From Candidatus Micrarchaeota archaeon (GTDB lineage Archaea; Micrarchaeota; Micrarchaeia; Anstonellales; JAHKLY01), in contig JAHKLY010000002.1 in the NCBI GenBank assembly GCA_020854825.1, positions 31,487 to 95,486 on the forward strand: a stretch of DNA of 64,000 nt, in the 5' to 3' direction. Within the stretch, counting starts at the first letter, position 1, and every line of letters begins with the position of its first letter. Of this stretch, positions 50,175 through 63,993 are shown one piece after another. Both the position numbers and the translations under genes were made by a program. The notes under the pieces are model-generated. The model did not search any database and was not told the origin of the DNA. It worked only from the letters and a program-made list of their open reading frames with translations.

Positions 50175-50936
50175 ATGGCAATTAGAAAATCTAAGACAAA
50201 AGCACCTGCGCGTGAGAAAAAGCAATATAAACAAAAAAGAATGATTGAATCGCAGGTATTTGATATTCCTACTCTTAAAGAGCTTTCTCGTTTAATTGGA
50301 AAAAGAATATTTGATACTTTAGATCACCCAATAGCTATTGGAAAAGAAGCGAAAGTATTCAGAGCAACAAAAGAATCAGTTAATGGAAAAAAAACATACT
50401 TAGCAGTTAAAATATATAGAATTGAAACTTCTTCATTTGATAAAATGATGGATTATTTAAAAGGAGATGCAAGGTTTAACAAAGTTAAAAATAAAAAATT
50501 AGATATTATCAAAACTTGGACAAGAAAAGAATACACAAATTTAAGACTTGCTTATGGTGCAAAAATACATGTTCCTAAACCAATTGGGTATGCAAGAAAT
50601 GTTTTAATAATGCATTTTCTTGGGGAAAAAGGCAAACCATATCCAACCTTACATGATTATGGGCCAATAAATCCAAAAGAAGATTTTAATCAACTATTGG
50701 TAGATATCAGAAAGTTATATACGCTTGGATTAGTTCACGGTGATCTAAGTCCATTTAATATTTTACAAACTCCAAAAGGACTTTATATGATTGATATGGG
50801 GCAAGCAGTAATATTAAAACATCCAAAGGCCCAAGAGTTTTTAGAGCGGGATGTTAGAAATATATTAAAATATTTTAAAAAATATGGTATTAAAAAATCA
50901 GAAGAAGAAATGATTAAGTACATAAAACAGAAGTAA
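50175..50936 (+). CDS. rio1: RIO-type serine/threonine kinase (Rio1-like)
   Basis: IAIGKEAKVFRA...LAVKIYRI and LVHGDLSPFNIL RIO motifs. Conserved position after eif1a. Confidence 0.8.
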   Translation: MAIRKSKTKAPAREKKQYKQKRMIESQVFDIPTLKELSRLIGKRIFDTLDHPIAIGKEAKVFRATKESVNGKKTYLAVKIYRIETSSFDKMMDYLKGDARFNKVKNKKLDIIKTWTRKEYTNLRLAYGAKIHVPKPIGYARNVLIMHFLGEKGKPYPTLHDYGPINPKEDFNQLLVDIRKLYTLGLVHGDLSPFNILQTPKGLYMIDMGQAVILKHPKAQEFLERDVRNILKYFKKYGIKKSEEEMIKYIKQK

Positions 50937-50944
50937 TCCTTTCT

Positions 50945-51691
50945 TTAATCTTCTTCTTTTCTTGGTGCTAAATAGTATGTTAGATCTGCGTCTTCAATAT
51001 TATATTTTACTTTAATAGGCATATCTGATTTTAAAAATAAATTTATAATATTGGCATCTGGGCATGCTTTTATTATATTTTCTAAATATTGAAGTGAAAA
51101 GCTGGCCCTTGCTTTTTTATCTGCTTTTACTTCTCTTATAATATTTCCATCTTTTTGATTTTCAATCCTTAATTTTCCAGAGTCTCCTTTAACATCAAAT
51201 GTTAGAGTTTCTCCATTTACTTCTAATGCTAGATATGAACTAACTAATCCTGCGTCTTTTAAAGATTCTTTAATACTTCCAGATAACATTTTAATTTCAG
51301 CATCTGCATCAATATTTAATTCTTTTTGAACCATATCTTTTGTTTCTAATAAGGGTATTTTGAAAGTTCTTTTACTTTTTTCTGAAGAGAATTCTATTAT
51401 TAATGTATTTTCATCTAAATTTAATGTTAAATTTTCTTTTGGTCTTGCTCTCGCAAGTATTTTATCTAGATTTACAAAATTAAGTCCAAGCGTTGTAGGT
51501 GAATCAACAGTATATTCCACAAAAGCTTCTTTTGGAACATTTAAGGTTATCATTGCAATCTGTGATGGATCTATAGCTCTTAAAAATAATCCATCTTTTT
51601 TAATTTCTAAGGGTCCTTCATCTATTAAATTAACGACAGCATCAATTATATTCTTTAACGATTTTGCGTTTTGCATTACAATTTTAAACAT
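50945..51691 (-). CDS. pcn: DNA polymerase sliding clamp PCNA
   Basis: MFKIVMQNAKSLKNIIDAVVNLIDEGPLEIKKDGLFLRAIDPS matches the PCNA N-terminal pattern. About 249 aa. Confidence 0.8.
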   Translation of the reverse strand: MFKIVMQNAKSLKNIIDAVVNLIDEGPLEIKKDGLFLRAIDPSQIAMITLNVPKEAFVEYTVDSPTTLGLNFVNLDKILARARPKENLTLNLDENTLIIEFSSEKSKRTFKIPLLETKDMVQKELNIDADAEIKMLSGSIKESLKDAGLVSSYLALEVNGETLTFDVKGDSGKLRIENQKDGNIIREVKADKKARASFSLQYLENIIKACPDANIINLFLKSDMPIKVKYNIEDADLTYYLAPRKEED

Positions 51692-51753
51692 TAATAGCAC
51701 CTCCTATTGAATATATTTACTTATGAAATGTTTATAATCATTTGTTTTATACT

Positions 51754-52710
51754 TCAATATTCAACAATAAAGCTTTCACATCCTTGTGGTTCTACCCACA
51801 TCCCAAATAAAAATAGTTTTGCATACCCAACATATGGAATTCTTAATATCACAATTCCCTTTGATTGTTGTTTTGATACAAGTGAATTACCCCTTTGATA
51901 TGTGGAAGAATGCATTTGTAAGTCAAAAATAGCATTATTATCTCCTTTTATTAAATAGTATTCACCTTGCGGTGAATTTATTTTTAAATAGACTCTATGG
52001 ATTATATCTCCAGTTAAAGCAAATAAATCCTCTTTTTTTGGTTCATAAACCATTATATCATTAGTTTTATTTAATTCATATATTTTTTCTTTGAATTCTA
52101 TATTTTTTACACAAATAGTATTAATATTAGATTTGTCTTGATACTCTCTTTTACAAGTTCCATAATTAAATTTTAATGGCCCATGCATTTCGTAATATTT
52201 TTCAGGATATATTTTAAAGTCTGTACAAAAATCAGTATTTTTATCTAAACAATATACAAATATTGATCCATTTAGGCCATATGTATTTCCTTCAATTTCT
52301 ATGATTGCTGTATTATTTATGTCATTTATATTTTCAACATATATGCTGGGAGCATTAATTTCTTGTTCTCCTTTTAATATGATCAGATCTCCTCTTTCAT
52401 AGTCAGGTAACATACTACAAGATACTATTGCATTTATAGGAATAGAAGTACCTAATAAAAATACAAGTCCAAACCATATACTTAAAGCTAATACAATGGC
52501 TATGACAATTTCTTTTATTTCATTTTTCATTCCTTTTTTAATTGTTCCTTTAACAATATCCATACCTACTATTAACAGAATGGATGATCCTCCTAAAACC
52601 GCAAAAATAACATGTCTAGTAAGTAGATATAATAAAAAAGAAATAATAAGCAGGATATAATGTAAATAATATTTTTCAATAACATCTATTTTTTTTAATA
52701 TTTTTTTCAT
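51754..52710 (-). CDS. signal peptidase I (S26/Sec11-like) with extended C-terminal domain
   Basis: SCSMLPDYERGDLIIL resembles the catalytic-Ser box SGSMEP...GDL. N-terminal TM helices. Confidence 0.5.
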   Translation of the reverse strand: MKKILKKIDVIEKYYLHYILLIISFLLYLLTRHVIFAVLGGSSILLIVGMDIVKGTIKKGMKNEIKEIVIAIVLALSIWFGLVFLLGTSIPINAIVSCSMLPDYERGDLIILKGEQEINAPSIYVENINDINNTAIIEIEGNTYGLNGSIFVYCLDKNTDFCTDFKIYPEKYYEMHGPLKFNYGTCKREYQDKSNINTICVKNIEFKEKIYELNKTNDIMVYEPKKEDLFALTGDIIHRVYLKINSPQGEYYLIKGDNNAIFDLQMHSSTYQRGNSLVSKQQSKGIVILRIPYVGYAKLFLFGMWVEPQGCESFIVEY

Positions 52711-52719
52711 TAATTATCC

Positions 52720-52986
52720 CTATTTTTTAAGTTGTGATTCTATTTTATCAAGGTCTTTTTGAAATTCTTCAACAGCATTTTTAATTAAACCTAATGCATC
52801 TTTTTTAGTAGTTCGTACATACAATATGTGATTATCCTTTAAAAAATGTCCTCTTTTAACTGCAGTAAATTCTACATCTTTATCTTTTAGAAGTTTTTCT
52901 TTAATAGAATTTAATAAACCAATATCTAAATCTTCAACTTCAATTTCTATATAATTTTTTTCTTTTTTAAGAAATTTAAATTTCAT
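52720..52986 (-). CDS. rpoL: RNA polymerase subunit L (Rpb11-like)
   Basis: 88 aa. NYIEIEVEDLDIGLLNSIKEKLLKDKDVEF pattern. Sits at the conserved csl4-rpoL locus. Confidence 0.6.
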   Translation of the reverse strand: MKFKFLKKEKNYIEIEVEDLDIGLLNSIKEKLLKDKDVEFTAVKRGHFLKDNHILYVRTTKKDALGLIKNAVEEFQKDLDKIESQLKK

Positions 52987-53004
52987 TTTTATCCCCCCTT
53001 ATTT

Positions 53005-53574
53005 TTATTTTAAAGCCAGGTTTCTATAATCATTACTAATCACTCTATTATCTTTAAATCCACATTGTTCACAAACAAGTGTGTTGTCTTCTTTTTTTAG
53101 TATATTTCTACATTTTGAACAAAATGCTTTTACCACTCCTAAATTAGGTTTATCTGTTGCTATTTCTATTTGTCCTTTTCTGATATCCACATTGATTACT
53201 ATTGCTTTAATTATATCTCCTATTTTTACTTCATTTTTTAAACTATCTACAAAACCTTGTTTTACATTTGAAACATGTAAACTGGCATAGTCATTCGTTT
53301 TTGGGTATCTCCCAATTTTTTGATCTATGGGTATAATTGAAGCTAAAGCCATTTGATCACTAACTTTTTCTATTCTTCCAAAAACCAATACTCCCCTATG
53401 GAGATTTCTATACCTATAAGGTCGGTCTACAGTCATTTTTCTATCCTCTATTTTTTTCTCTCCTAGTAATAGAGAACATATTTTTTCATTTTCTAGATAA
53501 GTTCCAGTTCCTTTAAGGAATTCTTCTTCTGTGCCTAATTCTTCTCCAGGTTTGGTTAAATCCATATTTATCAC
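53005..53574 (-). CDS. csl4: exosome subunit Csl4 (S1 + C-terminal zinc ribbon)
   Basis: S1-like middle domain. C-terminal CSKCRN...CEQCG ribbon. 189 aa. Confidence 0.65.
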   Translation of the reverse strand: MINMDLTKPGEELGTEEEFLKGTGTYLENEKICSLLLGEKKIEDRKMTVDRPYRYRNLHRGVLVFGRIEKVSDQMALASIIPIDQKIGRYPKTNDYASLHVSNVKQGFVDSLKNEVKIGDIIKAIVINVDIRKGQIEIATDKPNLGVVKAFCSKCRNILKKEDNTLVCEQCGFKDNRVISNDYRNLALK

Positions 53575-53647
53575 TAAAAATAGCTTTTATTTGTATATTA
53601 TTGTTAAATACCAATATTTAAATATGTTGCCTATGCTTTTATAATAC

Positions 53648-54871
53648 ATGAAAGGAATTCTTATACTATCTGTAGATAGGGATAATGATTTATTTGAGAA
53701 AGCTAAGATATCCGGTCCAATTATAGGCAGGGAAGCAAACTTAAATGCAGCGAATAAATTAGCGTTAGCAGATCCTCAGGATACAGATGCAAATGCTATT
53801 TTTCAAGCAGTTAAAAAGTATGATGAATTAGGAAAAGATTATGAAGTTCAAATAGTTACTTTAACTGGGAATAAGAAACTAGGGTATGAAGCAGATAAAA
53901 CAATTGCTAATCAATTAGATAAAATATTGCAAGGGTCTTCTTTTACTTCTTGTGTTTTAGTTACAGATGGTCAACATGATGAAGAGATTATTCCAATTCT
54001 TAAATCTAGAATTAAAATAGATTCAGCTCAAATTGTAGTTATGAAACAAGCAAAAGAATTAGAGAAAACATATGTAGTTTTATTAGAAAAATTAAAGGAT
54101 CCATATTACGCAAGAATTATTTTAGGAATTCCTGCGTTATTACTTATAATGTTTGCTTTAAGTAGTTATATGAATTGGGGATGGGAACCAGTAGCAATTG
54201 TTATTGCATTATTTCTTTTAATGAGATTATTTGGGATTGATGAATATATAGTTTCAACTTCAAGACATTTTAATTTTTCAGTAGAGAATAGTAGTTTTGT
54301 GATATATTTATCTGCATTTGCAATAATACTTGTTTCATTTTGGACAACCTATCAAACATATTCAATAAATTTTATGGAGTTTGATGCAGTTAAAATTCTA
54401 GGTATGAGTTTACAATCTTTAATGAGATTATTACCTTGGGGATTATTATTATTAGTTATAGGAAAAGTATTTGATGCATATAAAGAAGGAAAAAAGATAA
54501 AAATAACAAAATACGGGGCATATATGACTTCAATTATGTTATTTTGGTTAATATTTTCAGTAGGTGCAGATTGGGTTGTTAATATTTCTCCACCTTATGT
54601 TTCATTTGGAGATTTTATTTTAGTAATTTTGATAAGTTTAATTTTGGGGTATATATGTATTTATGTAATACATAAGATAAAAGTAGATATTGTATCAAGA
54701 CTTAAACTTGAAGATAAAGAAGTTATAAATGAATATGGATCTTTTATAGGAACTGTAGTTGGGGTAGATAAGAAGAAATCTATATTAATAGTTCAATCTC
54801 CTTTTGGACAAAAGAAAAAACTTAATTTTGATTTGATATCTGAAGTTAATGAAAGAATAATAGTCAAATGA
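53648..54871 (+). CDS. archaeal membrane protein (DUF373-like: soluble N-domain + multi-TM C-domain)
   Basis: ILILSVDRDNDL N-terminus then about 7 TM helices. The family assignment is from memory. Confidence 0.4.
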   Translation: MKGILILSVDRDNDLFEKAKISGPIIGREANLNAANKLALADPQDTDANAIFQAVKKYDELGKDYEVQIVTLTGNKKLGYEADKTIANQLDKILQGSSFTSCVLVTDGQHDEEIIPILKSRIKIDSAQIVVMKQAKELEKTYVVLLEKLKDPYYARIILGIPALLLIMFALSSYMNWGWEPVAIVIALFLLMRLFGIDEYIVSTSRHFNFSVENSSFVIYLSAFAIILVSFWTTYQTYSINFMEFDAVKILGMSLQSLMRLLPWGLLLLVIGKVFDAYKEGKKIKITKYGAYMTSIMLFWLIFSVGADWVVNISPPYVSFGDFILVILISLILGYICIYVIHKIKVDIVSRLKLEDKEVINEYGSFIGTVVGVDKKKSILIVQSPFGQKKKLNFDLISEVNERIIVK

Positions 54872-54877
54872 TTTATT

Positions 54878-55858
54878 TTAAATTAATTTTATTAATCCCC
54901 TGCCTATTTCTGCTAAATCCGCACCTAACATCATAGCAAATGAACGTATAAAGGTATAAGTAATAATTAATGCTATTACTGGTGAAATAAATATTCTCAA
55001 TAATATTGCAAAAAAACTACTTTCAAAAAACATTCCAAGTATTGTTTGATAATCAATACTCATTGCCATGTTCTTAATTAAACTTGCAGTTGCTATATTA
55101 TTACCAATACATAATTCTTCTAACATTTTATTATACTCATCTAGATTTTCAATTTCAAATGCTTCTAAGGATTCTGATGTACTACCTGATACAAAAAGAG
55201 TCATTAAAAAAGCAGAGGGAAGCACAATTGCAAAACCTAATCCCATAGCAATAAACATTGCTCCTACACCCCTAGTTGGAGGAAATGCTCTTAATATAAT
55301 ACCCATGGGTAATATTATTACTGCTAGATAATCTCCAAATTTCATTACCTCAACAAAAAAATACATCCACATTACAAATATCCCTAATACGTTTATTATC
55401 CAAGTGAATGTTCCGATAATTGTATTTGGGAGTGAGGCTGCACCAGGAATAAATGTTTTACTTAATAATCCTCCCATATCAGTTCCTATTATTGAAATTT
55501 CTTTACCAAATGCAAAAAAGAAACCTGCACTAAATACATTTCTATATGTTTTTTTAATTGGCCCCAATATTTTATAAACTTCAAAAACTGCGGCATTAAC
55601 AGGGTCTGAACCAAGTACTGGTGCAGTTGAAGTTGTATGTGTTAATTCATTTGAAACTTCTTGGGTTAAATAAAGCATACCTTGAATAAATCCTATAATT
55701 GCTAAAATTATAAATGCAGTTATTAAAATTTCCATATACTCACTTTTACACCATTTTTCTAATCCTTTTAAAGAAAATGCTCTCGCCATCATATAGAATA
55801 TAGTAATTCCCCCCAAGCAAAAAATTGCCAATATTAGAGTTAATATTATCCAATCCAT
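54878..55858 (-). CDS. paralog 6 of tandem polytopic membrane protein family (R-x-F-P-x-T-R motif)
   Basis: LPMGIILRAFPPTRGVGAMFIAMG motif. C-terminal MLGADLAEIGRGLIKLI. Its start overlaps the upstream gene's stop. Confidence 0.6.
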   Translation of the reverse strand: MDWIILTLILAIFCLGGITIFYMMARAFSLKGLEKWCKSEYMEILITAFIILAIIGFIQGMLYLTQEVSNELTHTTSTAPVLGSDPVNAAVFEVYKILGPIKKTYRNVFSAGFFFAFGKEISIIGTDMGGLLSKTFIPGAASLPNTIIGTFTWIINVLGIFVMWMYFFVEVMKFGDYLAVIILPMGIILRAFPPTRGVGAMFIAMGLGFAIVLPSAFLMTLFVSGSTSESLEAFEIENLDEYNKMLEELCIGNNIATASLIKNMAMSIDYQTILGMFFESSFFAILLRIFISPVIALIITYTFIRSFAMMLGADLAEIGRGLIKLI

Positions 55859-56979
55859 TATATCATCCGTGTTAGATTTGATAAATCTATTTGTTCACCA
55901 AAGAACCTTGAAAATTCTCTCATTGATGTTGCCAATATAGCAAAATTTAATAGGGGTAAAAATAAACTACCCAAAATATTAATTGCCAACATTTTCCAAG
56001 TTGCCATAGATAATGCACTAAACATTATTTTCATAGGTTCAATTATACCAATCTTAAAAGTTATTGGTGCACTTGTATGTATATTTCCATCAAACATATC
56101 TGCAGGACTATTAATATGTAGATTAATAAATTGATTTGCTTGCATTTGTTCTGCAACAAATTCAATAATTCCTTCCCACATTCCAAATACTCCAATACCT
56201 TGTAATGCGACACTATTAATAACTAAGAGCATAGGCCAAAATAAACCCAATGCAATTGTTAATCCAATAAGTGTTCCCCCAAACCTTCTTGTAGGTTCAA
56301 AGCATCTTAGTAATATGCCAATAGGCAGGTATATAGTAAACATTCCAGCATATACATAATTAAATAACATAAGTTGGGTTATAGATGTTACAAGCATTGT
56401 TATTATTCCTATTTGTGCTATTTCAAATACTCTATTTAAACTATTTAATCCCTTTCCAGGAGTAATGCCAATACCCAAACCTATAATATCCACTGAAAAT
56501 TTAAAATTTCCAATAGTTTCTCTTTGAATATTAAAGAAAAGTATGCTTGTTAAAGAAATAGTATTCATTCTCATAAGTGTGGTTAAATAATCTTTTGCTT
56601 CTACGACCATTGAGTCATCGCCAGCACCTAGAACATTACCAAAAATCATTTTAGGAGTTAAACCTCCAGAACATAAAATAAATTCTGAAAATCCAACAAT
56701 AACGAGCAATATTAATACAGTTGCACCAACTTGTAGCATTTCATATTTTGCCCATGTTTCACCTTTTTGTATTTGCATCCCCCTACATATAAGAAATATA
56801 ATTAATAGAATTAAAAGAGAAATCATTATTGCTATATAGCAAGTGACAGCCCATGAAGACATAAATGCATTCAAATCTCCCCCACAAACATCATCTGGAA
56901 ATATATCAAATAATGCAGAATGCGACAGATTAAATAGTAGAATTATGCATAGGATAAATAAGGGAATTTTTTTGATCAT
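55858..56979 (-). CDS. paralog 5 of tandem membrane protein family
   Basis: LPIGILLRCFEPTRRFGGTLIGLT. C-terminal FFGEQIDLSNLTRMI. Signal-peptide-like N-terminus. Confidence 0.6.
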   Translation of the reverse strand: MIKKIPLFILCIILLFNLSHSALFDIFPDDVCGGDLNAFMSSWAVTCYIAIMISLLILLIIFLICRGMQIQKGETWAKYEMLQVGATVLILLVIVGFSEFILCSGGLTPKMIFGNVLGAGDDSMVVEAKDYLTTLMRMNTISLTSILFFNIQRETIGNFKFSVDIIGLGIGITPGKGLNSLNRVFEIAQIGIITMLVTSITQLMLFNYVYAGMFTIYLPIGILLRCFEPTRRFGGTLIGLTIALGLFWPMLLVINSVALQGIGVFGMWEGIIEFVAEQMQANQFINLHINSPADMFDGNIHTSAPITFKIGIIEPMKIMFSALSMATWKMLAINILGSLFLPLLNFAILATSMREFSRFFGEQIDLSNLTRMI

Positions 56980-58181
56980 ATTAATTTCACCAATTCTGCT
57001 ACATTCATATCTGAACCTAAGAATTTTCCCATTTCTTGTATAAATGTAAATGTAATGAATATATTTAATGAAGGCAATATAAAACTACCTATCATTACTA
57101 GAAAAATACCTTCTTGGAGCATAATATAAAAGGCGTCCATATATAAATCACTAATTGCTCCAGCAACCATTGGATAAAGAAGCTGCCGATTTTTAAATAT
57201 AGTGGGAGTTCCACTTGTCATAAATTCTTTAAATGATTTATATAATGGATCTATTATGGCATTTGTAATTTCTCTACCTGGCCTATTAAGAGTAGGAGGG
57301 AAAGCATAGAAATGGTCTTGTGCATAATTTATCATTTCATAAGGATATACTCCAATATATGCAGACATTATTAAATTATTGAGATTAAGCATAATTGGAT
57401 AAACAAAATATAGGCCTAGTGCAAGGGCAATTAATCCCCCCCCTACAGAACGAGTAGTTGGAAAACTTCGCAATATTAATCCCAATGGTAAAAATAAAGC
57501 AAGCATTTTATCTGAAGTAAAACATAGAATAAACATATTACCAATCCAGCTTGTTATTGCAGGTAATAAAATAACCAAAGACCAATCAGTTAGTTTAGAC
57601 ACAATGCCAAACATTGAACCAAAATCATAATTAATTCCAATCATATTAAATGGAGTGAAATTAATTTCTATTGAGAATAACCCTTCTAAAAACATATTTA
57701 TAGTTAACATATGGTATCCTAAATGCATTAGTTCTGCAGCCATTGCTTCTGAATAATAATATGCAGTTTGTAATAAAGTGCACCCCGCATTTGGATCGCT
57801 TGGGTCAGAGTATCCACATAAAGTTACATCACAATCACCTACATTTTGACAAGAAGGGTTATTTAATTTTCCAATTTGATCTAAAGGCCCTATCAATGCA
57901 AGCAATAAAACAATAAGTATGAAGGATGCACTAACTTGCCAAATTTCATTTTTTCCCCATGCACTAATATTTGGAAGGTCCACTGCTTTTCCGATTAAAA
58001 ACACACAAACAGCAATCATAAATACAAGAAAAACTCCAGTAATAGATAGTACTAACCAGTTTAATGATGAATCTTGTAGTCCAATTGTTGGGCATGTTTG
58101 AGTCGGTTGTACTAAACTAAATCCTGTGATATTATTAATACAAAGGAAAAACATAATTACTAAAATTAATTTATTATTCAT
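56976..58181 (-). CDS. paralog 4 of tandem membrane protein family
   Basis: LPLGLILRSFPTTRSVGGGLIALA. C-terminal FLGSDMNVAELVKLI. Confidence 0.6.
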   Translation of the reverse strand: MNNKLILVIMFFLCINNITGFSLVQPTQTCPTIGLQDSSLNWLVLSITGVFLVFMIAVCVFLIGKAVDLPNISAWGKNEIWQVSASFILIVLLLALIGPLDQIGKLNNPSCQNVGDCDVTLCGYSDPSDPNAGCTLLQTAYYYSEAMAAELMHLGYHMLTINMFLEGLFSIEINFTPFNMIGINYDFGSMFGIVSKLTDWSLVILLPAITSWIGNMFILCFTSDKMLALFLPLGLILRSFPTTRSVGGGLIALALGLYFVYPIMLNLNNLIMSAYIGVYPYEMINYAQDHFYAFPPTLNRPGREITNAIIDPLYKSFKEFMTSGTPTIFKNRQLLYPMVAGAISDLYMDAFYIMLQEGIFLVMIGSFILPSLNIFITFTFIQEMGKFLGSDMNVAELVKLI

Positions 58182-58189
58182 TTTTTCAC

Positions 58190-59437
58190 CTATAAGAAAT
58201 GTGATAATCCTGCAATTGATGCATCTCCTCCAAAAAATGGAGCCATTGTTTTTATTGAAGCTAAAATAGCGAATAATACAAGTAAAGGTATAATAACAGT
58301 TAGCATAGCAATTTTACCAATCATATGTAAGATACCGTCTATTTCAAGAGCCATATTCTGTCCTTTAAGATGCATAAGAAGATATGCATCAGAAATCGAA
58401 AAAACTCTATTATAATATTCAGTAAATCCTTTACCTATATTTTTAAGCGATTCAAGAGGATGAAGAAAATCAAAATGTGCATTTTCAAAATCAAATTGAG
58501 GTAACAAACTTGCACTTCCTTCAGTCATAAAATCAGCATAAGGCAGTAGTTTTTGTCCAGTCAAAGAGGTCTGTAATCCTATAAAGTTTCCTGATTCAAA
58601 CATTGCCCTATGGCCAATAATATATGGTAATGGAGCAATATAATACAGGCTAAGAGATGTAGCTATTAAAAACCCCCCCAATTTTCTAGTAAATTCAAAA
58701 CTTCTAAATACAAATCCACTAATTAATAAAACTGGAAATAAAACTTGTGCTACTATATCTACTGCATTTTTTTGAATTATATTAATAATTAAAGAATGTG
58801 ATAAAAGTTTGAATGCTTTAGCATACATTCCAAATTCTACTGAATATCCTACTCCCGGCATAATTTTTAGTATTTCTGGAAGCAACAAGAAAGGAGGTTT
58901 AGGCGCAATTACGTATCCTTGTAATAAAAATTTAAAAGATGAAAAAAAGCTTAATTGTTGGTATAATAATAACATTTGTGTCATTGTTTCTGATATCAAC
59001 CATTCTGTTCTATCTAAAAATGATAGTGTTACACATATATGAGGAGCGTAATTTCTGCCTACTACTTCAAATCCTTTTTTTGTATATAAACACTTTCCAT
59101 CTGGATTTAATGCAACACCTGCCTCTTGCATAGTCAAAGTATTGGATAATATTAAATCAATATTTGGAGTTGTATCTATTGAAGAATATGGATCTAATTG
59201 CACAATTCCTTTGGGGATGATTTCGTTATCTATAATTGGTATTGCAACAACGACAATCAAAAAGAAAAAGAATAGATTTAGAATGACTTGCCCATATTCA
59301 GTTTTTGCCTTTGCTCTTAAAGATTCGTCTTGTAATATAAATGAAAATAAATGTATTAGAACATAAATTCCAAGCATAATTAAAGATAGTACAAATGTAA
59401 GCAAAAGCCCCTGTGTTTGTAATTCTATAGGTATCAT
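58190..59437 (-). CDS. paralog 3 of tandem membrane protein family
   Basis: FPVLLISGFVFRSFEFTRKLGGFLIATS. C-terminal FFGGDASIAGLSHFL. Confidence 0.6.
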   Translation of the reverse strand: MIPIELQTQGLLLTFVLSLIMLGIYVLIHLFSFILQDESLRAKAKTEYGQVILNLFFFFLIVVVAIPIIDNEIIPKGIVQLDPYSSIDTTPNIDLILSNTLTMQEAGVALNPDGKCLYTKKGFEVVGRNYAPHICVTLSFLDRTEWLISETMTQMLLLYQQLSFFSSFKFLLQGYVIAPKPPFLLLPEILKIMPGVGYSVEFGMYAKAFKLLSHSLIINIIQKNAVDIVAQVLFPVLLISGFVFRSFEFTRKLGGFLIATSLSLYYIAPLPYIIGHRAMFESGNFIGLQTSLTGQKLLPYADFMTEGSASLLPQFDFENAHFDFLHPLESLKNIGKGFTEYYNRVFSISDAYLLMHLKGQNMALEIDGILHMIGKIAMLTVIIPLLVLFAILASIKTMAPFFGGDASIAGLSHFL

Positions 59438-60390
59438 TAATCAAACCTCTGTATTAAGAATTTTTGAAAACTATTTATAAAAGATACTGTTATTGCCATA
59501 CTTATTGTAGGTAAAAATAATCCCTGCATTAAAACAACTGACAGCATTATAAATCCATTAAATATTTCATATAGTTTTGGCTCTATTACTTGAAATGTTT
59601 TTCCCCAAGCACCTGTAAATGCATCAAATGTTGTGCTATTTGGTATTTCATCAAATATTATTTGAGTTATTGAAATCATGAAGTTATCTTGTATATCTGA
59701 AACAATATTTTCAACTATTGCTGCGTGGATTACATATGAAAATGGAAAAACAATATAAAATCCAATTGCAACTGCGATTAAAAATGAACCTGAATTTCTT
59801 GTAGTTGGAAATATTCTTAAGAAAATTCCGATTGGCAATACAAAAGGAATCATTATTGCTTTTATAATTGATAATGCAAATTGTTGTATTGCTAAACTTG
59901 CATAAAATGGACTCATTAAAGCAAATACTTTATCTAATGCTTTTGTTAAAGTACTTAAATCAAACGGAGGAAAGGTAACGTCTGCTCTTATTGGAATTCC
60001 TATCAAGGCTACTCCAGGTATGTCATTTAATCCTATCTTTATATTTATTTTAGTTAATATATCCATTCCCACCCTCCCATAGAATACAGATTTCATAGTT
60101 CCAAATGTATCAACAAGTAGGTTTTCTAAATATTCTAAAGATATAGTAAATGGGTCATTTCCAATTAATTGAGTGCTTATTTCAAATAATCCTTGTATTC
60201 CAAATATAATAAATAACAAAATAGCAATAGATACCAATATCTGATATAATTCCATTCTTGCAAAAATTTCAAATTCTTTATTATTTAATAATTTAGAAAG
60301 CAAATAAGAAATTGCAGTTAATGCTACCATAATCATTAAAGGTACGATAGAAAGTTGCAATGCAGTTATAAATGCTTGATCAAATGCCAT
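59437..60390 (-). CDS. paralog 2 of tandem membrane protein family
   Basis: LPIGIFLRIFPTTRNSGSFLIAVA. Stop/start overlap with neighbours. Confidence 0.6.
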   Translation of the reverse strand: MAFDQAFITALQLSIVPLMIMVALTAISYLLSKLLNNKEFEIFARMELYQILVSIAILLFIIFGIQGLFEISTQLIGNDPFTISLEYLENLLVDTFGTMKSVFYGRVGMDILTKINIKIGLNDIPGVALIGIPIRADVTFPPFDLSTLTKALDKVFALMSPFYASLAIQQFALSIIKAIMIPFVLPIGIFLRIFPTTRNSGSFLIAVAIGFYIVFPFSYVIHAAIVENIVSDIQDNFMISITQIIFDEIPNSTTFDAFTGAWGKTFQVIEPKLYEIFNGFIMLSVVLMQGLFLPTISMAITVSFINSFQKFLIQRFD

Positions 60391-60391
60391 A

Positions 60392-61663
60392 TTATCCCAA
60401 CTTTAATTTTTCAATTCCAAATATTTTTGTTTCTCCTCCTAAAATTCCAGAGATATTTGCAAATAAGGTTAAACAAATAATAACATCCATAAAAAAACAA
60501 ATAGCAATAAAAATAAACTTCTGTAAAACTTGATTTGCTAAAGCGGCTGTGTAATGAATTGGTTCAGCTGCAAATTCACTTAAATTAATGCCTAATGCAG
60601 CACCAGCAAGTGCAGTTGTTAATTTGGATAATTTACTTAAGGTTCCAAATAATAAATTGTTTATTGTATTGCTAATTACTTCTCCTGCTCTTATCACAGA
60701 TCTTCCAATATATGCAAAAAAGTTTTTTATTTTATCACCTAAATTTGAATTCCAATTAGTTTCTTCGTTTATATCATTTATATTATCTGTTAATGAACCA
60801 AATTCATCAATTAATATATCTCCCCCTTCAGGATAATGTTCATCCATTTTTTCCTGCATTTTTGTTTCATCTTCAAGTTTTTGTTCTAATCTTTCTTCTA
60901 ATAATGCAACAGAAATTGGATCCTCATTATCATATGATAAACCACCTAAGAACATATTGACATATATATATTGATTAAATAAAATAGTCATTGGAAAAAT
61001 GAAATAAAAAGTAATTGCTAATGCAATTAATGTAGAACCTAATCTTCTTGTTATGGGTAATGCGCGTAATATTATCCCCAATGGGAAAAATATTGTGAAT
61101 GAAGTTATTTTAATAAAATCCAATATGGAATCCATTACAGATACTAAAAAGTTTGTCATAATAACAGTTTTAGTTATATCTCCAATCATATCTGCAACTA
61201 TATTCAATCCTGCTAATGGTTGCATGCTTACACTCACTACAAAACCAACAAGACCCCCCATAGGTATGGGAACTCCAAATGTTATTCCATATTTAGAATA
61301 ACCAGATAAAATTGCACTAGTTCGTACTCCTCTTTCCGCAATATTTTGTAGATTTAAATCCAGTACTTTTAGAAACACTTTTCCTTGTGTAAAATATACG
61401 GGATCGTTTATATCTAAAGGTCCTGAATAACCTATTAATGCATAACATACTAATAATACCACATAATGAAGTAAAAACATCCCAAGAAAAACTATTAATA
61501 CAGAATAAATCAATTCTTTAAATTCTTTTTGTGCCCAGCCTTTTAATTGAGGAAATCCTCCCAAAGTAGATATTAAATATGCAAATAAAGCACCGCCTAG
61601 ACTTATCATTAATCCTATAAATACTAGTACATATGCTTGTGAACTAAATACCATATAATTCAT
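60392..61663 (-). CDS. paralog 1 (first gene) of tandem membrane protein family, with acidic insertion
   Basis: FPLGIILRALPITRRLGSTLIALA motif. E/D-rich insertion (EERLEQKLEDETKMQEKMDEH). C-terminal FGIEKLKLG. Confidence 0.6.
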   Translation of the reverse strand: MNYMVFSSQAYVLVFIGLMISLGGALFAYLISTLGGFPQLKGWAQKEFKELIYSVLIVFLGMFLLHYVVLLVCYALIGYSGPLDINDPVYFTQGKVFLKVLDLNLQNIAERGVRTSAILSGYSKYGITFGVPIPMGGLVGFVVSVSMQPLAGLNIVADMIGDITKTVIMTNFLVSVMDSILDFIKITSFTIFFPLGIILRALPITRRLGSTLIALAITFYFIFPMTILFNQYIYVNMFLGGLSYDNEDPISVALLEERLEQKLEDETKMQEKMDEHYPEGGDILIDEFGSLTDNINDINEETNWNSNLGDKIKNFFAYIGRSVIRAGEVISNTINNLLFGTLSKLSKLTTALAGAALGINLSEFAAEPIHYTAALANQVLQKFIFIAICFFMDVIICLTLFANISGILGGETKIFGIEKLKLG

Positions 61664-61724
61664 TTAATTGTGTTAAATATATAAAGGTTTATTTATCGGG
61701 CATTTATAAAGAAATAGTATAAAT

Positions 61725-61790
61725 CGCTCAGTCCGCTCGTCAATCCTCATTGGCTTGCGCCTTAGTGATCACCTTCGTCCTCATTGCGAT
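61725..61790 (-). ncRNA. candidate box C/D-like sRNA or structured 5' leader, upstream of the membrane-paralog operon
   Basis: Minus strand: AUCGC-AAUGAGGA-[12 nt CGAAGGUGAUCA]-CUAA-GGCGCAAGCC-AAUGAGGA-[12 nt UUGACGAGCGGA]-CUGA-GCG. Two C-like boxes (UGAGGA variant of UGAUGA), D'/D boxes, two 12-nt spacers, terminal CGC/GCG stem. It is the only GC-rich intergenic island in the window. Confidence 0.3.
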
Positions 61791-61827
61791 ATAAATATTA
61801 TTGGGTTTTCCTTTATAAATATGTGTA

Positions 61828-62526
61828 TTAATTTATAGTTCTTTTCTTTAAATGTTTAGGCATTTTTTCAATAGCATATCTTAAAGCGGTTCTTGGCATC
61901 TTATGTTTATTTTTCATTACATATTCAAAAACTTGTTTTTGATCTTGATCTGCGCCTACTTTAAGCGCCCAGCCATATGCTTTTTGTACTAGATATTCTT
62001 TGTCCTGCAATAAAATATCAGATATTTCAAAAATAGTTTTTAAGAATTTTTTATCTTTTCTTACAGGAAGAATAAGAGAAACAGCTGATGCTCTTTTCAT
62101 CCACATATTTTTATGTTTTGCCCATTTTTTTAAATGTTTTACATATTTCGGATATTCTAAAATAAAATAACCCATTGTATGACAGCAGAAATCATCACAT
62201 TTTGCCCAATTATTTACATATTTATTTATCCATCTTTCAAATATTTTAAAATCTTGTTCTGTTATTTGTTTTTTTCTTTTATATATCCATTGAAAAACGA
62301 TAAATGTTTCTTCAATTGATTTTGTTTTTAATAGTTCTTCACATTTCTTATAAAATTCCTTTTTATCTAATTCTTTAATATCTTTAAAATATCCATTAGC
62401 TATTTTTCTTACAATAGGAACTCTAACTCCGTGTGCTTTTATTTTATGTCCAAATGCACGATGTAAATTATTTCTATATTTTATATCAATATTTTTTCCT
62501 AATTCTTTTTGTATTTGTTTTAACAT
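61828..62526 (-). CDS. DNA alkylation repair protein (AlkD/AlkC-like HEAT-repeat glycosylase family)
   Basis: All-helical. W..KRASAVSL and KAYGWALK motifs resemble the DNA_alkylation family. Confidence 0.55.
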   Translation of the reverse strand: MLKQIQKELGKNIDIKYRNNLHRAFGHKIKAHGVRVPIVRKIANGYFKDIKELDKKEFYKKCEELLKTKSIEETFIVFQWIYKRKKQITEQDFKIFERWINKYVNNWAKCDDFCCHTMGYFILEYPKYVKHLKKWAKHKNMWMKRASAVSLILPVRKDKKFLKTIFEISDILLQDKEYLVQKAYGWALKVGADQDQKQVFEYVMKNKHKMPRTALRYAIEKMPKHLKKRTIN

Positions 62527-62644
62527 ACTTTATACCTCATGTTATACTTATCCAGTATATACTAGAATGCATAACCTTTATATACTCTACGATACATTGG
62601 ATATATATAAATAATAGAAATATTATAAAATATGAGGTGATTTT

Positions 62645-62884
62645 GTGGTTAATATAAATTTAGGAGCCCCATACGAAGCAATAATTAAAAGAATAATTGA
62701 AAAAGAATATGCAGGAAACCAAACAGAAGTTATAAGACAAGCACTTGTAGAATATGAGAATAAGATACAAGATGATGAAGCAGAAGTAATTAATCGATTT
62801 ATTGAAGATAGAAGAAGAAAAATAAATTCTGGAGAATTAAAACTAATCTCAGCAGAAGAAATTAAAAAGAAATATAAGTTGTGA
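62645..62884 (+). CDS. parD: type II antitoxin, ParD-like
   Basis: YAGNQTEVIRQALVEYEN matches ParD (GRYGSASEVIRAALRLLE). 79 aa. GTG start. Confidence 0.6.
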   Translation: MVNINLGAPYEAIIKRIIEKEYAGNQTEVIRQALVEYENKIQDDEAEVINRFIEDRRRKINSGELKLISAEEIKKKYKL

Positions 62885-62888
62885 TTTC

Positions 62889-63149
62889 ATGGAATTATTA
62901 TTTACTGAAGAAGCTAAAGAAGATCTTCTAAAACTTGATAAATATGAACAAAAAATATTTATGAAACACGCTGAAAAAATTTTAATTTATGAAAATCGAA
63001 AACATTTGAAACATGGTGTTCCACTTTATGTTGAAAAAGTTTCAAAACAAGCTAGGATAATTTACGATATTCAAAAAGAAAAATTAATAATATTAAAAAT
63101 TTGTGCAACACATAAAGAGTATGAAAAGATATATAATGAATTTAGATAA
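62889..63149 (+). CDS. parE: type II toxin, ParE/RelE family
   Basis: 86 aa. ARIIYDIQKEKLIILKICATHKEYEKIY matches the RelE/ParE C-terminal YRI.Y....I.I..I.HR..Y pattern. 4 nt after parD. Confidence 0.6.
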   Translation: MELLFTEEAKEDLLKLDKYEQKIFMKHAEKILIYENRKHLKHGVPLYVEKVSKQARIIYDIQKEKLIILKICATHKEYEKIYNEFR

Positions 63150-63993
63150 TCTGGATATCTAAACATATTTGAAAAACATTGGGTGCATAAGGCCTAACTA
63201 GTTTTTTATTTAATAATTTAGTTTTAAATCCATATTTTTTAGCTATTATTTCAACTTTTTTTATTTTTCTTTCAAATGGGTATTCTTTAGAATCAAACGC
63301 ATTTAAATGCTGTGCATTTAAATATTCGCCAGCTTTGCTGTCGAAAGCATAGATATGTAAAATAGTTCCTGTTTTAGCGCATTTTAAAACATAAGGTAAA
63401 AAATCTAGTGCATTTTTAGGTAAAGGCATAATTATTCTGTCTGCCCATTTTTTAAATTCAGGATATTTTTCAACTATTTTTGAAGCATCTCCTAAAAGCG
63501 CTTTACAATTATTTAATTTATTTAATTTTATATTTTCTTCAAAATATTTTACTGCTTCAGGATTTAATTCAATACCCACTACTTTTGTTTTTGGATTTTT
63601 TTTTGCAATTGTAATTGCAAACGGACCGTATCCTGCAAATGGTACTAAAATGTTTTCATTTCGCCCAGATTGTTCTGCAATACGTTTTCTATCTGTTGAT
63701 AATTTAGTTGAATAAAACATATTAGAAATATCTAATTTAAATAAACAGCTATTTTCTTTATAAGTAGTAACAAAATTTTTTTCTCCAGTAATAACTTTTA
63801 CTTTTCTTATTCTAAATTTACCAGACATCCCTGTTTCTTTTTTTAATACTGTTTTAATATTTTTATGCATCTGCATTACTGCATTACCAATTTGTTGTTC
63901 ATATTTTTCTAATGAGTTGGGTATTTCTATAATTGCAATAGTATTTAAAACTTCAAAAGATGAAACTAATTCATTTAATTCTTTTTCATTCAT
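63142..63993 (-). CDS. trm5: tRNA (guanine37-N1)-methyltransferase Trm5/Taw2-like (Met-10+ family); may extend beyond the window end
   Basis: VPFAGYGPFAITIAKKN...VVGIELNPEAVKYF...GDASKI...DRIIMPLP class-I MTase motifs typical of Trm5/TYW2. The upstream frame is still open at the window edge. Confidence 0.6.
   Translation of the reverse strand: MNEKELNELVSSFEVLNTIAIIEIPNSLEKYEQQIGNAVMQMHKNIKTVLKKETGMSGKFRIRKVKVITGEKNFVTTYKENSCLFKLDISNMFYSTKLSTDRKRIAEQSGRNENILVPFAGYGPFAITIAKKNPKTKVVGIELNPEAVKYFEENIKLNKLNNCKALLGDASKIVEKYPEFKKWADRIIMPLPKNALDFLPYVLKCAKTGTILHIYAFDSKAGEYLNAQHLNAFDSKEYPFERKIKKVEIIAKKYGFKTKLLNKKLVRPYAPNVFQICLDIQII

Follow-up and report, generated by a model that had tools for sequence, protein, structure and literature searches.

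Six paralogous membrane proteins with a predicted VirB6/DotA-like fold are encoded by a conserved, translationally coupled operon of Micrarchaeota

We analysed a 64,000-nucleotide (nt) stretch of a Candidatus Micrarchaeota genome (contig JAHKLY010000002.1, positions 31,487 to 95,486; hereafter the window), in which six consecutive genes on the minus strand encode paralogous polytopic membrane proteins. A preliminary description, made from the sequence alone, had proposed that these proteins are co-translated in equal amounts into one hetero-oligomeric complex resembling the VirB6/TrbL channel components of type IV secretion systems (T4SS), and our results partly support this interpretation. 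All six open reading frames (ORFs) were recovered exactly where it had placed them and at the same lengths.

60392..61663, minus strand: subunit type 1, first transcribed, a polytopic membrane protein of 423 amino acids (aa) (ORF; family profile match, E 8e-118; tree clade p1)
59437..60390, minus strand: subunit type 2, 317 aa, with a 1-nt gap (60391) to type 1 (ORF, family profile, tree)
58190..59437, minus strand: subunit type 3, 415 aa, with a diverged core motif, FVFRSFEFTRKLGG; nt 59437 is common to types 2 and 3 (ORF, family profile, tree)
56976..58181, minus strand: subunit type 4, 401 aa, with a signal-peptide-like N-terminal extension (ORF, family profile, tree)
55858..56979, minus strand: subunit type 5, 373 aa, with a signal-peptide-like N-terminal extension (ORF, family profile, tree)
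54878..55858, minus strand: subunit type 6, 326 aa, AlphaFold model with a pLDDT of 86 (ORF, family profile, tree)
55244..55312, minus strand: core motif of subunit 6, LPMGIILRAFPPTRGVGAMFIA, residues 183-205, in the turn that joins the long hydrophobic helices 140-190 and 193-223, as judged from the alignment invariants and the secondary structure of the model

The junctions between the genes are tight. The stop of subunit 5 and the start of subunit 6 have nt 55858 in common, subunits 4 and 5 overlap by 4 nt in an ATGA (56976-56979), and the shared nucleotide at 59437 and the 1-nt gap at 60391 were likewise verified. The junction between subunits 3 and 4, which had not been listed before, is an 8-nt gap (58182-58189); an in-frame GTG at 58187 lies directly past the upstream stop, and translation of the 401-aa subunit 4 may in truth begin there, which could close the gap.

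Pairwise identity among the six proteins is about 22%, and eight residues are identical in all of them: E40, G186, R190, T195, R196, G199, I203 and P214 (numbered as in the 326-aa subunit 6). Every subunit has two hydrophobic segments in its N-terminal part, followed by a non-hydrophobic helix and then by a long, motif-bearing hydrophobic hairpin, and a hydrophobic helix at its C-terminus; subunits 4 and 5 alone carry the signal-peptide-like extension, and the other four open directly with a hydrophobic helix. The core motif has the consensus LPxGIxLRxFPxTRxxGG. In an alignment of 115 diverse family members G186, R190, R196, G199 and P214 were invariant. The motif of the preliminary description is correct in essence, but it is "nearly invariant" at its core only, and the 415-aa paralog reads differently. 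The conserved N-terminal segment proposed as (K/N)-x-E-(W/Y) exists, but the family consensus is better written W-A-K-x-E, and its E40 is, together with G312, conserved in at least 90% of the 115 members. A C-terminal motif, (L/F)GxD...L(I), occurs in five of the six proteins rather than in each. The invariant Arg pair at the hairpin turn and the conserved Glu near the N-terminal helices are, from these alignments, a candidate gate or active site.

To place the family, we scanned the six proteins against Pfam, NCBIfam and PHROGs, and no significant family was found; membership in ABC-2, FtsX or a similar known transporter family, on which the earlier reading would have fallen, was rejected as no such profile matched. 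The same scans of 10 diverse members, including fused forms of 759-1270 aa, were equally negative, and a scan of all 115 aligned members returned scattered noise only. The fused forms bear large Cys-rich extensions, and no diverse representative showed a Pfam domain. One protein closely related to the 415-aa subunit (P0006, Micrarchaeia MAG WC356_03120) carries the JGI pipeline name "voltage-gated potassium channel", without profile evidence.

A profile built from the six paralogs retrieved 34 close relatives in a database clustered at 90% and 2,946 clusters at 50% identity (E<=1e-3). The source names of the matches are those of Micrarchaeota, among them Micrarchaeia MAG (metagenome-assembled genome) WC356, Ca. 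Anstonella stagnisolia, Ca. Gugararchaeum and several other Micrarchaeota MAGs; the phylum is called Microcaldota by NCBI, and the ESM Atlas clusters of the family are dominated by Microcaldota. The family is present in 178 of the 201 genomes sampled from this phylum, typically as 8 to 13 members in tandem arrays. Several families of the same class (f13, f14, f17 and others in our numbering) lack it, and nearly all others have it. The best-supported conclusion is that the operon is ancient and specific to Micrarchaeota.

The genome analysed here holds 12 family members in two operons. The second, divergent six-gene operon lies on contig C3 (C3:77390-84672, plus strand; locus L011 3390-10672), and its 664-aa member (L011 5464-7458) carries an insertion with about 45 cysteines, placed after the hydrophobic core and ahead of the C-terminal helix. 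A maximum-likelihood tree of 66 members from 12 arrays in 10 genomes clustered the proteins by array position and not by genome. Each of the six window genes fell in a well-supported position clade (Shimodaira-Hasegawa-like approximate likelihood ratio test values of 91-99), together with same-position genes from other sampled genomes (G051, of the same genus, G005, G155, G177, G135, G004/G090, G092/G167 and G115). Members of the second operon sit in the same position clades, and it is therefore a duplicate of the whole operon. The pattern of junctions (shared nucleotide, ATGA overlap, 8-nt gap, adjacent genes, 1-2 nt gap) was replicated in G051 and nearly so in G135, supporting the proposed translational coupling and extending it to other genera; because the same gene order and the same overlaps recur in other genomes, a chance origin of the arrays is ruled out. 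A set of six non-interchangeable types, whose order and coupling are maintained from family to family, is characteristic of a stoichiometric hetero-oligomer, and the proposal of such a complex is thus well founded; co-assembly itself is plausible. An AlphaFold complex prediction for subunits 5 and 6 gave a score of 0.03, which by the tool's own reading carries no weight either way.

We used structure and embedding searches to ask what the subunits resemble. The top solved-structure matches for two independent models were VirB6/TrwI and DotA; in a wide structure search DotA was the first match for one model and the third for the other, and the nearest non-self neighbour in the ESM Atlas was a TrbL/VirB6 cluster. 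Matches of lower Z included BAR-domain and helical-repeat proteins, and the weak Foldseek matches include transporters. The predicted model shows the VirB6/TrbL arrangement of two N-terminal membrane helices followed by long hydrophobic helices (seven long helices), and the DotA architecture of a signal peptide, TMI/TMII and five hydrophobic helices is also found, with signal-peptide-like N-termini in subunits 4 and 5. At the sequence level, by contrast, no link was detected: the VirB6/TrbL family hidden Markov model (HMM; PF04610) matched nothing in this genome nor any of the 115 family members at E<=10, and the family HMM gave only one noise match against PDB sequences (an ABC transporter, E 0.22). 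The proposed VirB6/TrbL resemblance is therefore supported for the predicted fold only, and sequence-level membership of VirB6/TrbL (PF04610, TrbL_2, TrbL_3) was rejected.

The surroundings of the operon are housekeeping genes (window positions 50175-54871 and 61828-63993: RIO kinase, PCNA, an RRP4-like exosome subunit, a DUF373 membrane protein, a DNA-alkylation repair enzyme and a TRM5/TYW2 methyltransferase), and the VirB2 pilin and VirB8/VirB5 partners of a T4SS are not among them. Neither IcmX nor other Dot/Icm components lie near the operon, in what is an archaeal genome, and the operon has no pilin gene. No VirB4-family ATPase (PF03135) is encoded in the genome. Two type IV pilus/archaellum-type ATPases (T2SSE; C4:76960-77832 and C3:25276-25842) occur elsewhere, none near the operon, and the sole HerA/DUF87 ATPase (C4:62003-62653) is on a contig other than that of the operon. 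With no VirB4-family ATPase, and with the HerA and T2SSE ATPases remote, the operon would thus encode a VirB6-like complex outside any recognisable T4SS, Ced or Ted system. Upstream of subunit 1 lies one further feature:

61664..61827, minus strand: intergenic region and putative promoter, in which a TATA-like, AT-rich stretch, TTTATAAA, lies near 61710-61703

This region is a putative archaeal promoter, as judged from its sequence; a scan for sigma-70 promoters and terminators stayed below the shuffle expectation, and the sigma-70 model does not apply to archaea. Small antisense ORFs within the operon (55068-55331, 60588-60836 and 61053-61301, all on the plus strand) are unsupported and probably spurious. 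The window belongs to a low-GC (about 28%) part of the genome, and its GC skew switches sign near 8-10 kb, 17-19 kb and about 50 kb. The genome, at 828 kb and 97.6% complete, is that of a reduced archaeon of the DPANN group, in agreement with the earlier guess of a reduced, probably host-associated organism. The operon is covered by contigs of three sludge metagenomes, with no variants and no joints, and the sequencing runs listed as holding it are DNA metagenome runs only.

Several explanations have to be weighed against this evidence. Each of the six genes could encode an independent transporter or channel with its own substrate, the paralogs having expanded as is typical of uptake in nutrient-dependent symbionts and the VirB6-like match being a chance likeness of long-helix membrane proteins. 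Polytopic paralogs with conserved Arg and Glu at an intramembrane boundary would suit such a role, DPANN archaea rely on imported nutrients (PMC8975820), and transporters appear among the weak Foldseek matches. We nevertheless consider it unlikely, since no transporter family profile matches, MFS-like models score far lower in the ESM Atlas (TM 0.29), and strict position-specific orthology with coupling conserved across genera is hard to account for in this way. Somewhat more doubtful is a purely structural membrane scaffold without a transport role, for example in S-layer anchoring or membrane remodelling at attachment sites. The long amphipathic and hydrophobic helices, the likeness to BAR-domain and helical-repeat proteins at lower Z and the Cys-rich extracellular extensions of some members are compatible with it; for both models, however, it is the membrane pore proteins of T4SS in particular that match best, and a charged motif that never varies points to a gate or active site more than to a mere scaffold.

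The operon could also encode a Ced/Ted-like, T4SS-derived DNA-import pore specific to Micrarchaeota, taking up DNA from kin or host with its partner ATPase encoded elsewhere. Archaeal Ced/Ted systems use VirB6-like CedA/TedA pores that are detectable by profile or structure only (PMC9905601), a HerA/DUF87 ATPase is present in the genome, and an embedding search of the ESM Atlas gave a score of 0.90 to a Microcaldota cluster in which 23% of members carry the CedA1 domain (PF27251, the archaeal Ced pilin), a hint that the CedA1 model picks up some proteins of Micrarchaeota. Against this, the genome lacks a VirB4/CedB-family ATPase, HerA is a near-universal archaeal repair helicase encoded on another contig, and neither the CedB/TedB (VirB4/HerA-like) ATPase nor the CedA1/TedC pilin is found beside the putative pore; Ced is moreover single-copy, whereas six fixed paralogs occur here. 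We rate an import pore of this kind as rather improbable.

We favour, tentatively and as one possibility among these, the reading that the six genes form a conserved Micrarchaeota operon for six distinct subunits of one VirB6/DotA-like membrane complex, a channel or platform for exchange with a host. Our analysis directly establishes which genes are present and how they are conserved, that there are six fixed types of subunit, that the genes are coupled, and what fold is predicted. From them we infer co-assembly, a channel or platform role and a function at host contact. The six subunits would be co-translated in equal amounts and would most likely assemble with one another as a hetero-oligomeric membrane ring or cone. 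If VirB6, the homo-pentameric base of the stalk, and the pore formed by DotA are taken as analogies, this ring or cone would be a cell-surface channel or assembly platform. It would most plausibly serve contact-dependent exchange with the host, either taking up metabolites, lipids or macromolecules or anchoring an attachment structure. Such a complex would have to do without the ATPase motor of a T4SS or draw on a partner whose gene lies elsewhere. A bolder form, which we think unlikely, is that the inner-membrane pore of a T4SS has been domesticated into an ATPase-independent derivative, a hetero-hexamer of six distinct VirB6-like subunits, sometimes duplicated, that would act as a conduit for host material at attachment sites and be the archaeal counterpart of the T4SS contact machinery of bacterial epibionts.

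Micrarchaeota attach to Thermoplasmatales hosts, remodel the surface at contact sites and have few transporters, and it has long been asked how small-genome, transporter-poor DPANN archaea obtain host nutrients and lipids (PMC8975820). Patescibacteria, which are bacterial epibionts, need a VirB6-containing T4SS for epibiotic growth (PMC12102498). The operon occurs almost throughout a major DPANN phylum, each of its subunits is conserved individually, and the predicted fold resembles the pores of bacterial secretion machines; the operon is therefore a concrete candidate for contact machinery. Should the six proteins make up a single VirB6-like pore, a hetero-oligomeric assembly would be a first for the VirB6 type, and archaea would have a T4SS-derived channel that operates without a T4SS motor.

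Among known systems, VirB6/TrwI of the R388 conjugative T4SS (PDB 7O3V, 8RT9, 8RTD) is a homo-pentamer encoded on a mobile element, whereas the operon is archaeal, chromosomal and built of six distinct paralogous subunits; the likeness lies in the predicted fold, with no detectable sequence homology, and the VirB2, VirB4, VirB5 and VirB8 partners of TrwI are absent from this genome and operon. Tandem arrays of several VirB6 paralogs occur in the rvh T4SS of Rickettsiales, which are likewise host-associated and genome-reduced. Those arrays lie within a complete T4SS with VirB4/8/9/10/11 and VirD4, in contrast to the present operon, which has no T4SS around it and no sequence homology to them. 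The CedA/TedA pores of Sulfolobales and Thermoproteales are also archaeal membrane pores of VirB6-like fold, and the embedding match to the CedA1-domain cluster is a possible lead from this family to them; they differ in that Ced and Ted occur in single copy, with genes for a VirB4-like ATPase and a pilin beside them, neither of which is found here. DotA, of the protochannel of the Legionella Dot/Icm type IVB secretion system (PDB 9NGY), is about 1000 aa long, forms a homo-pentamer and partners IcmX; the operon comprises six paralogs outside such a context, in a family of 300-450 aa with a few members of up to about 1270 aa. The Cys insertion in the 664-aa member of the second operon recalls the disulfide-rich extended domain of DotA.

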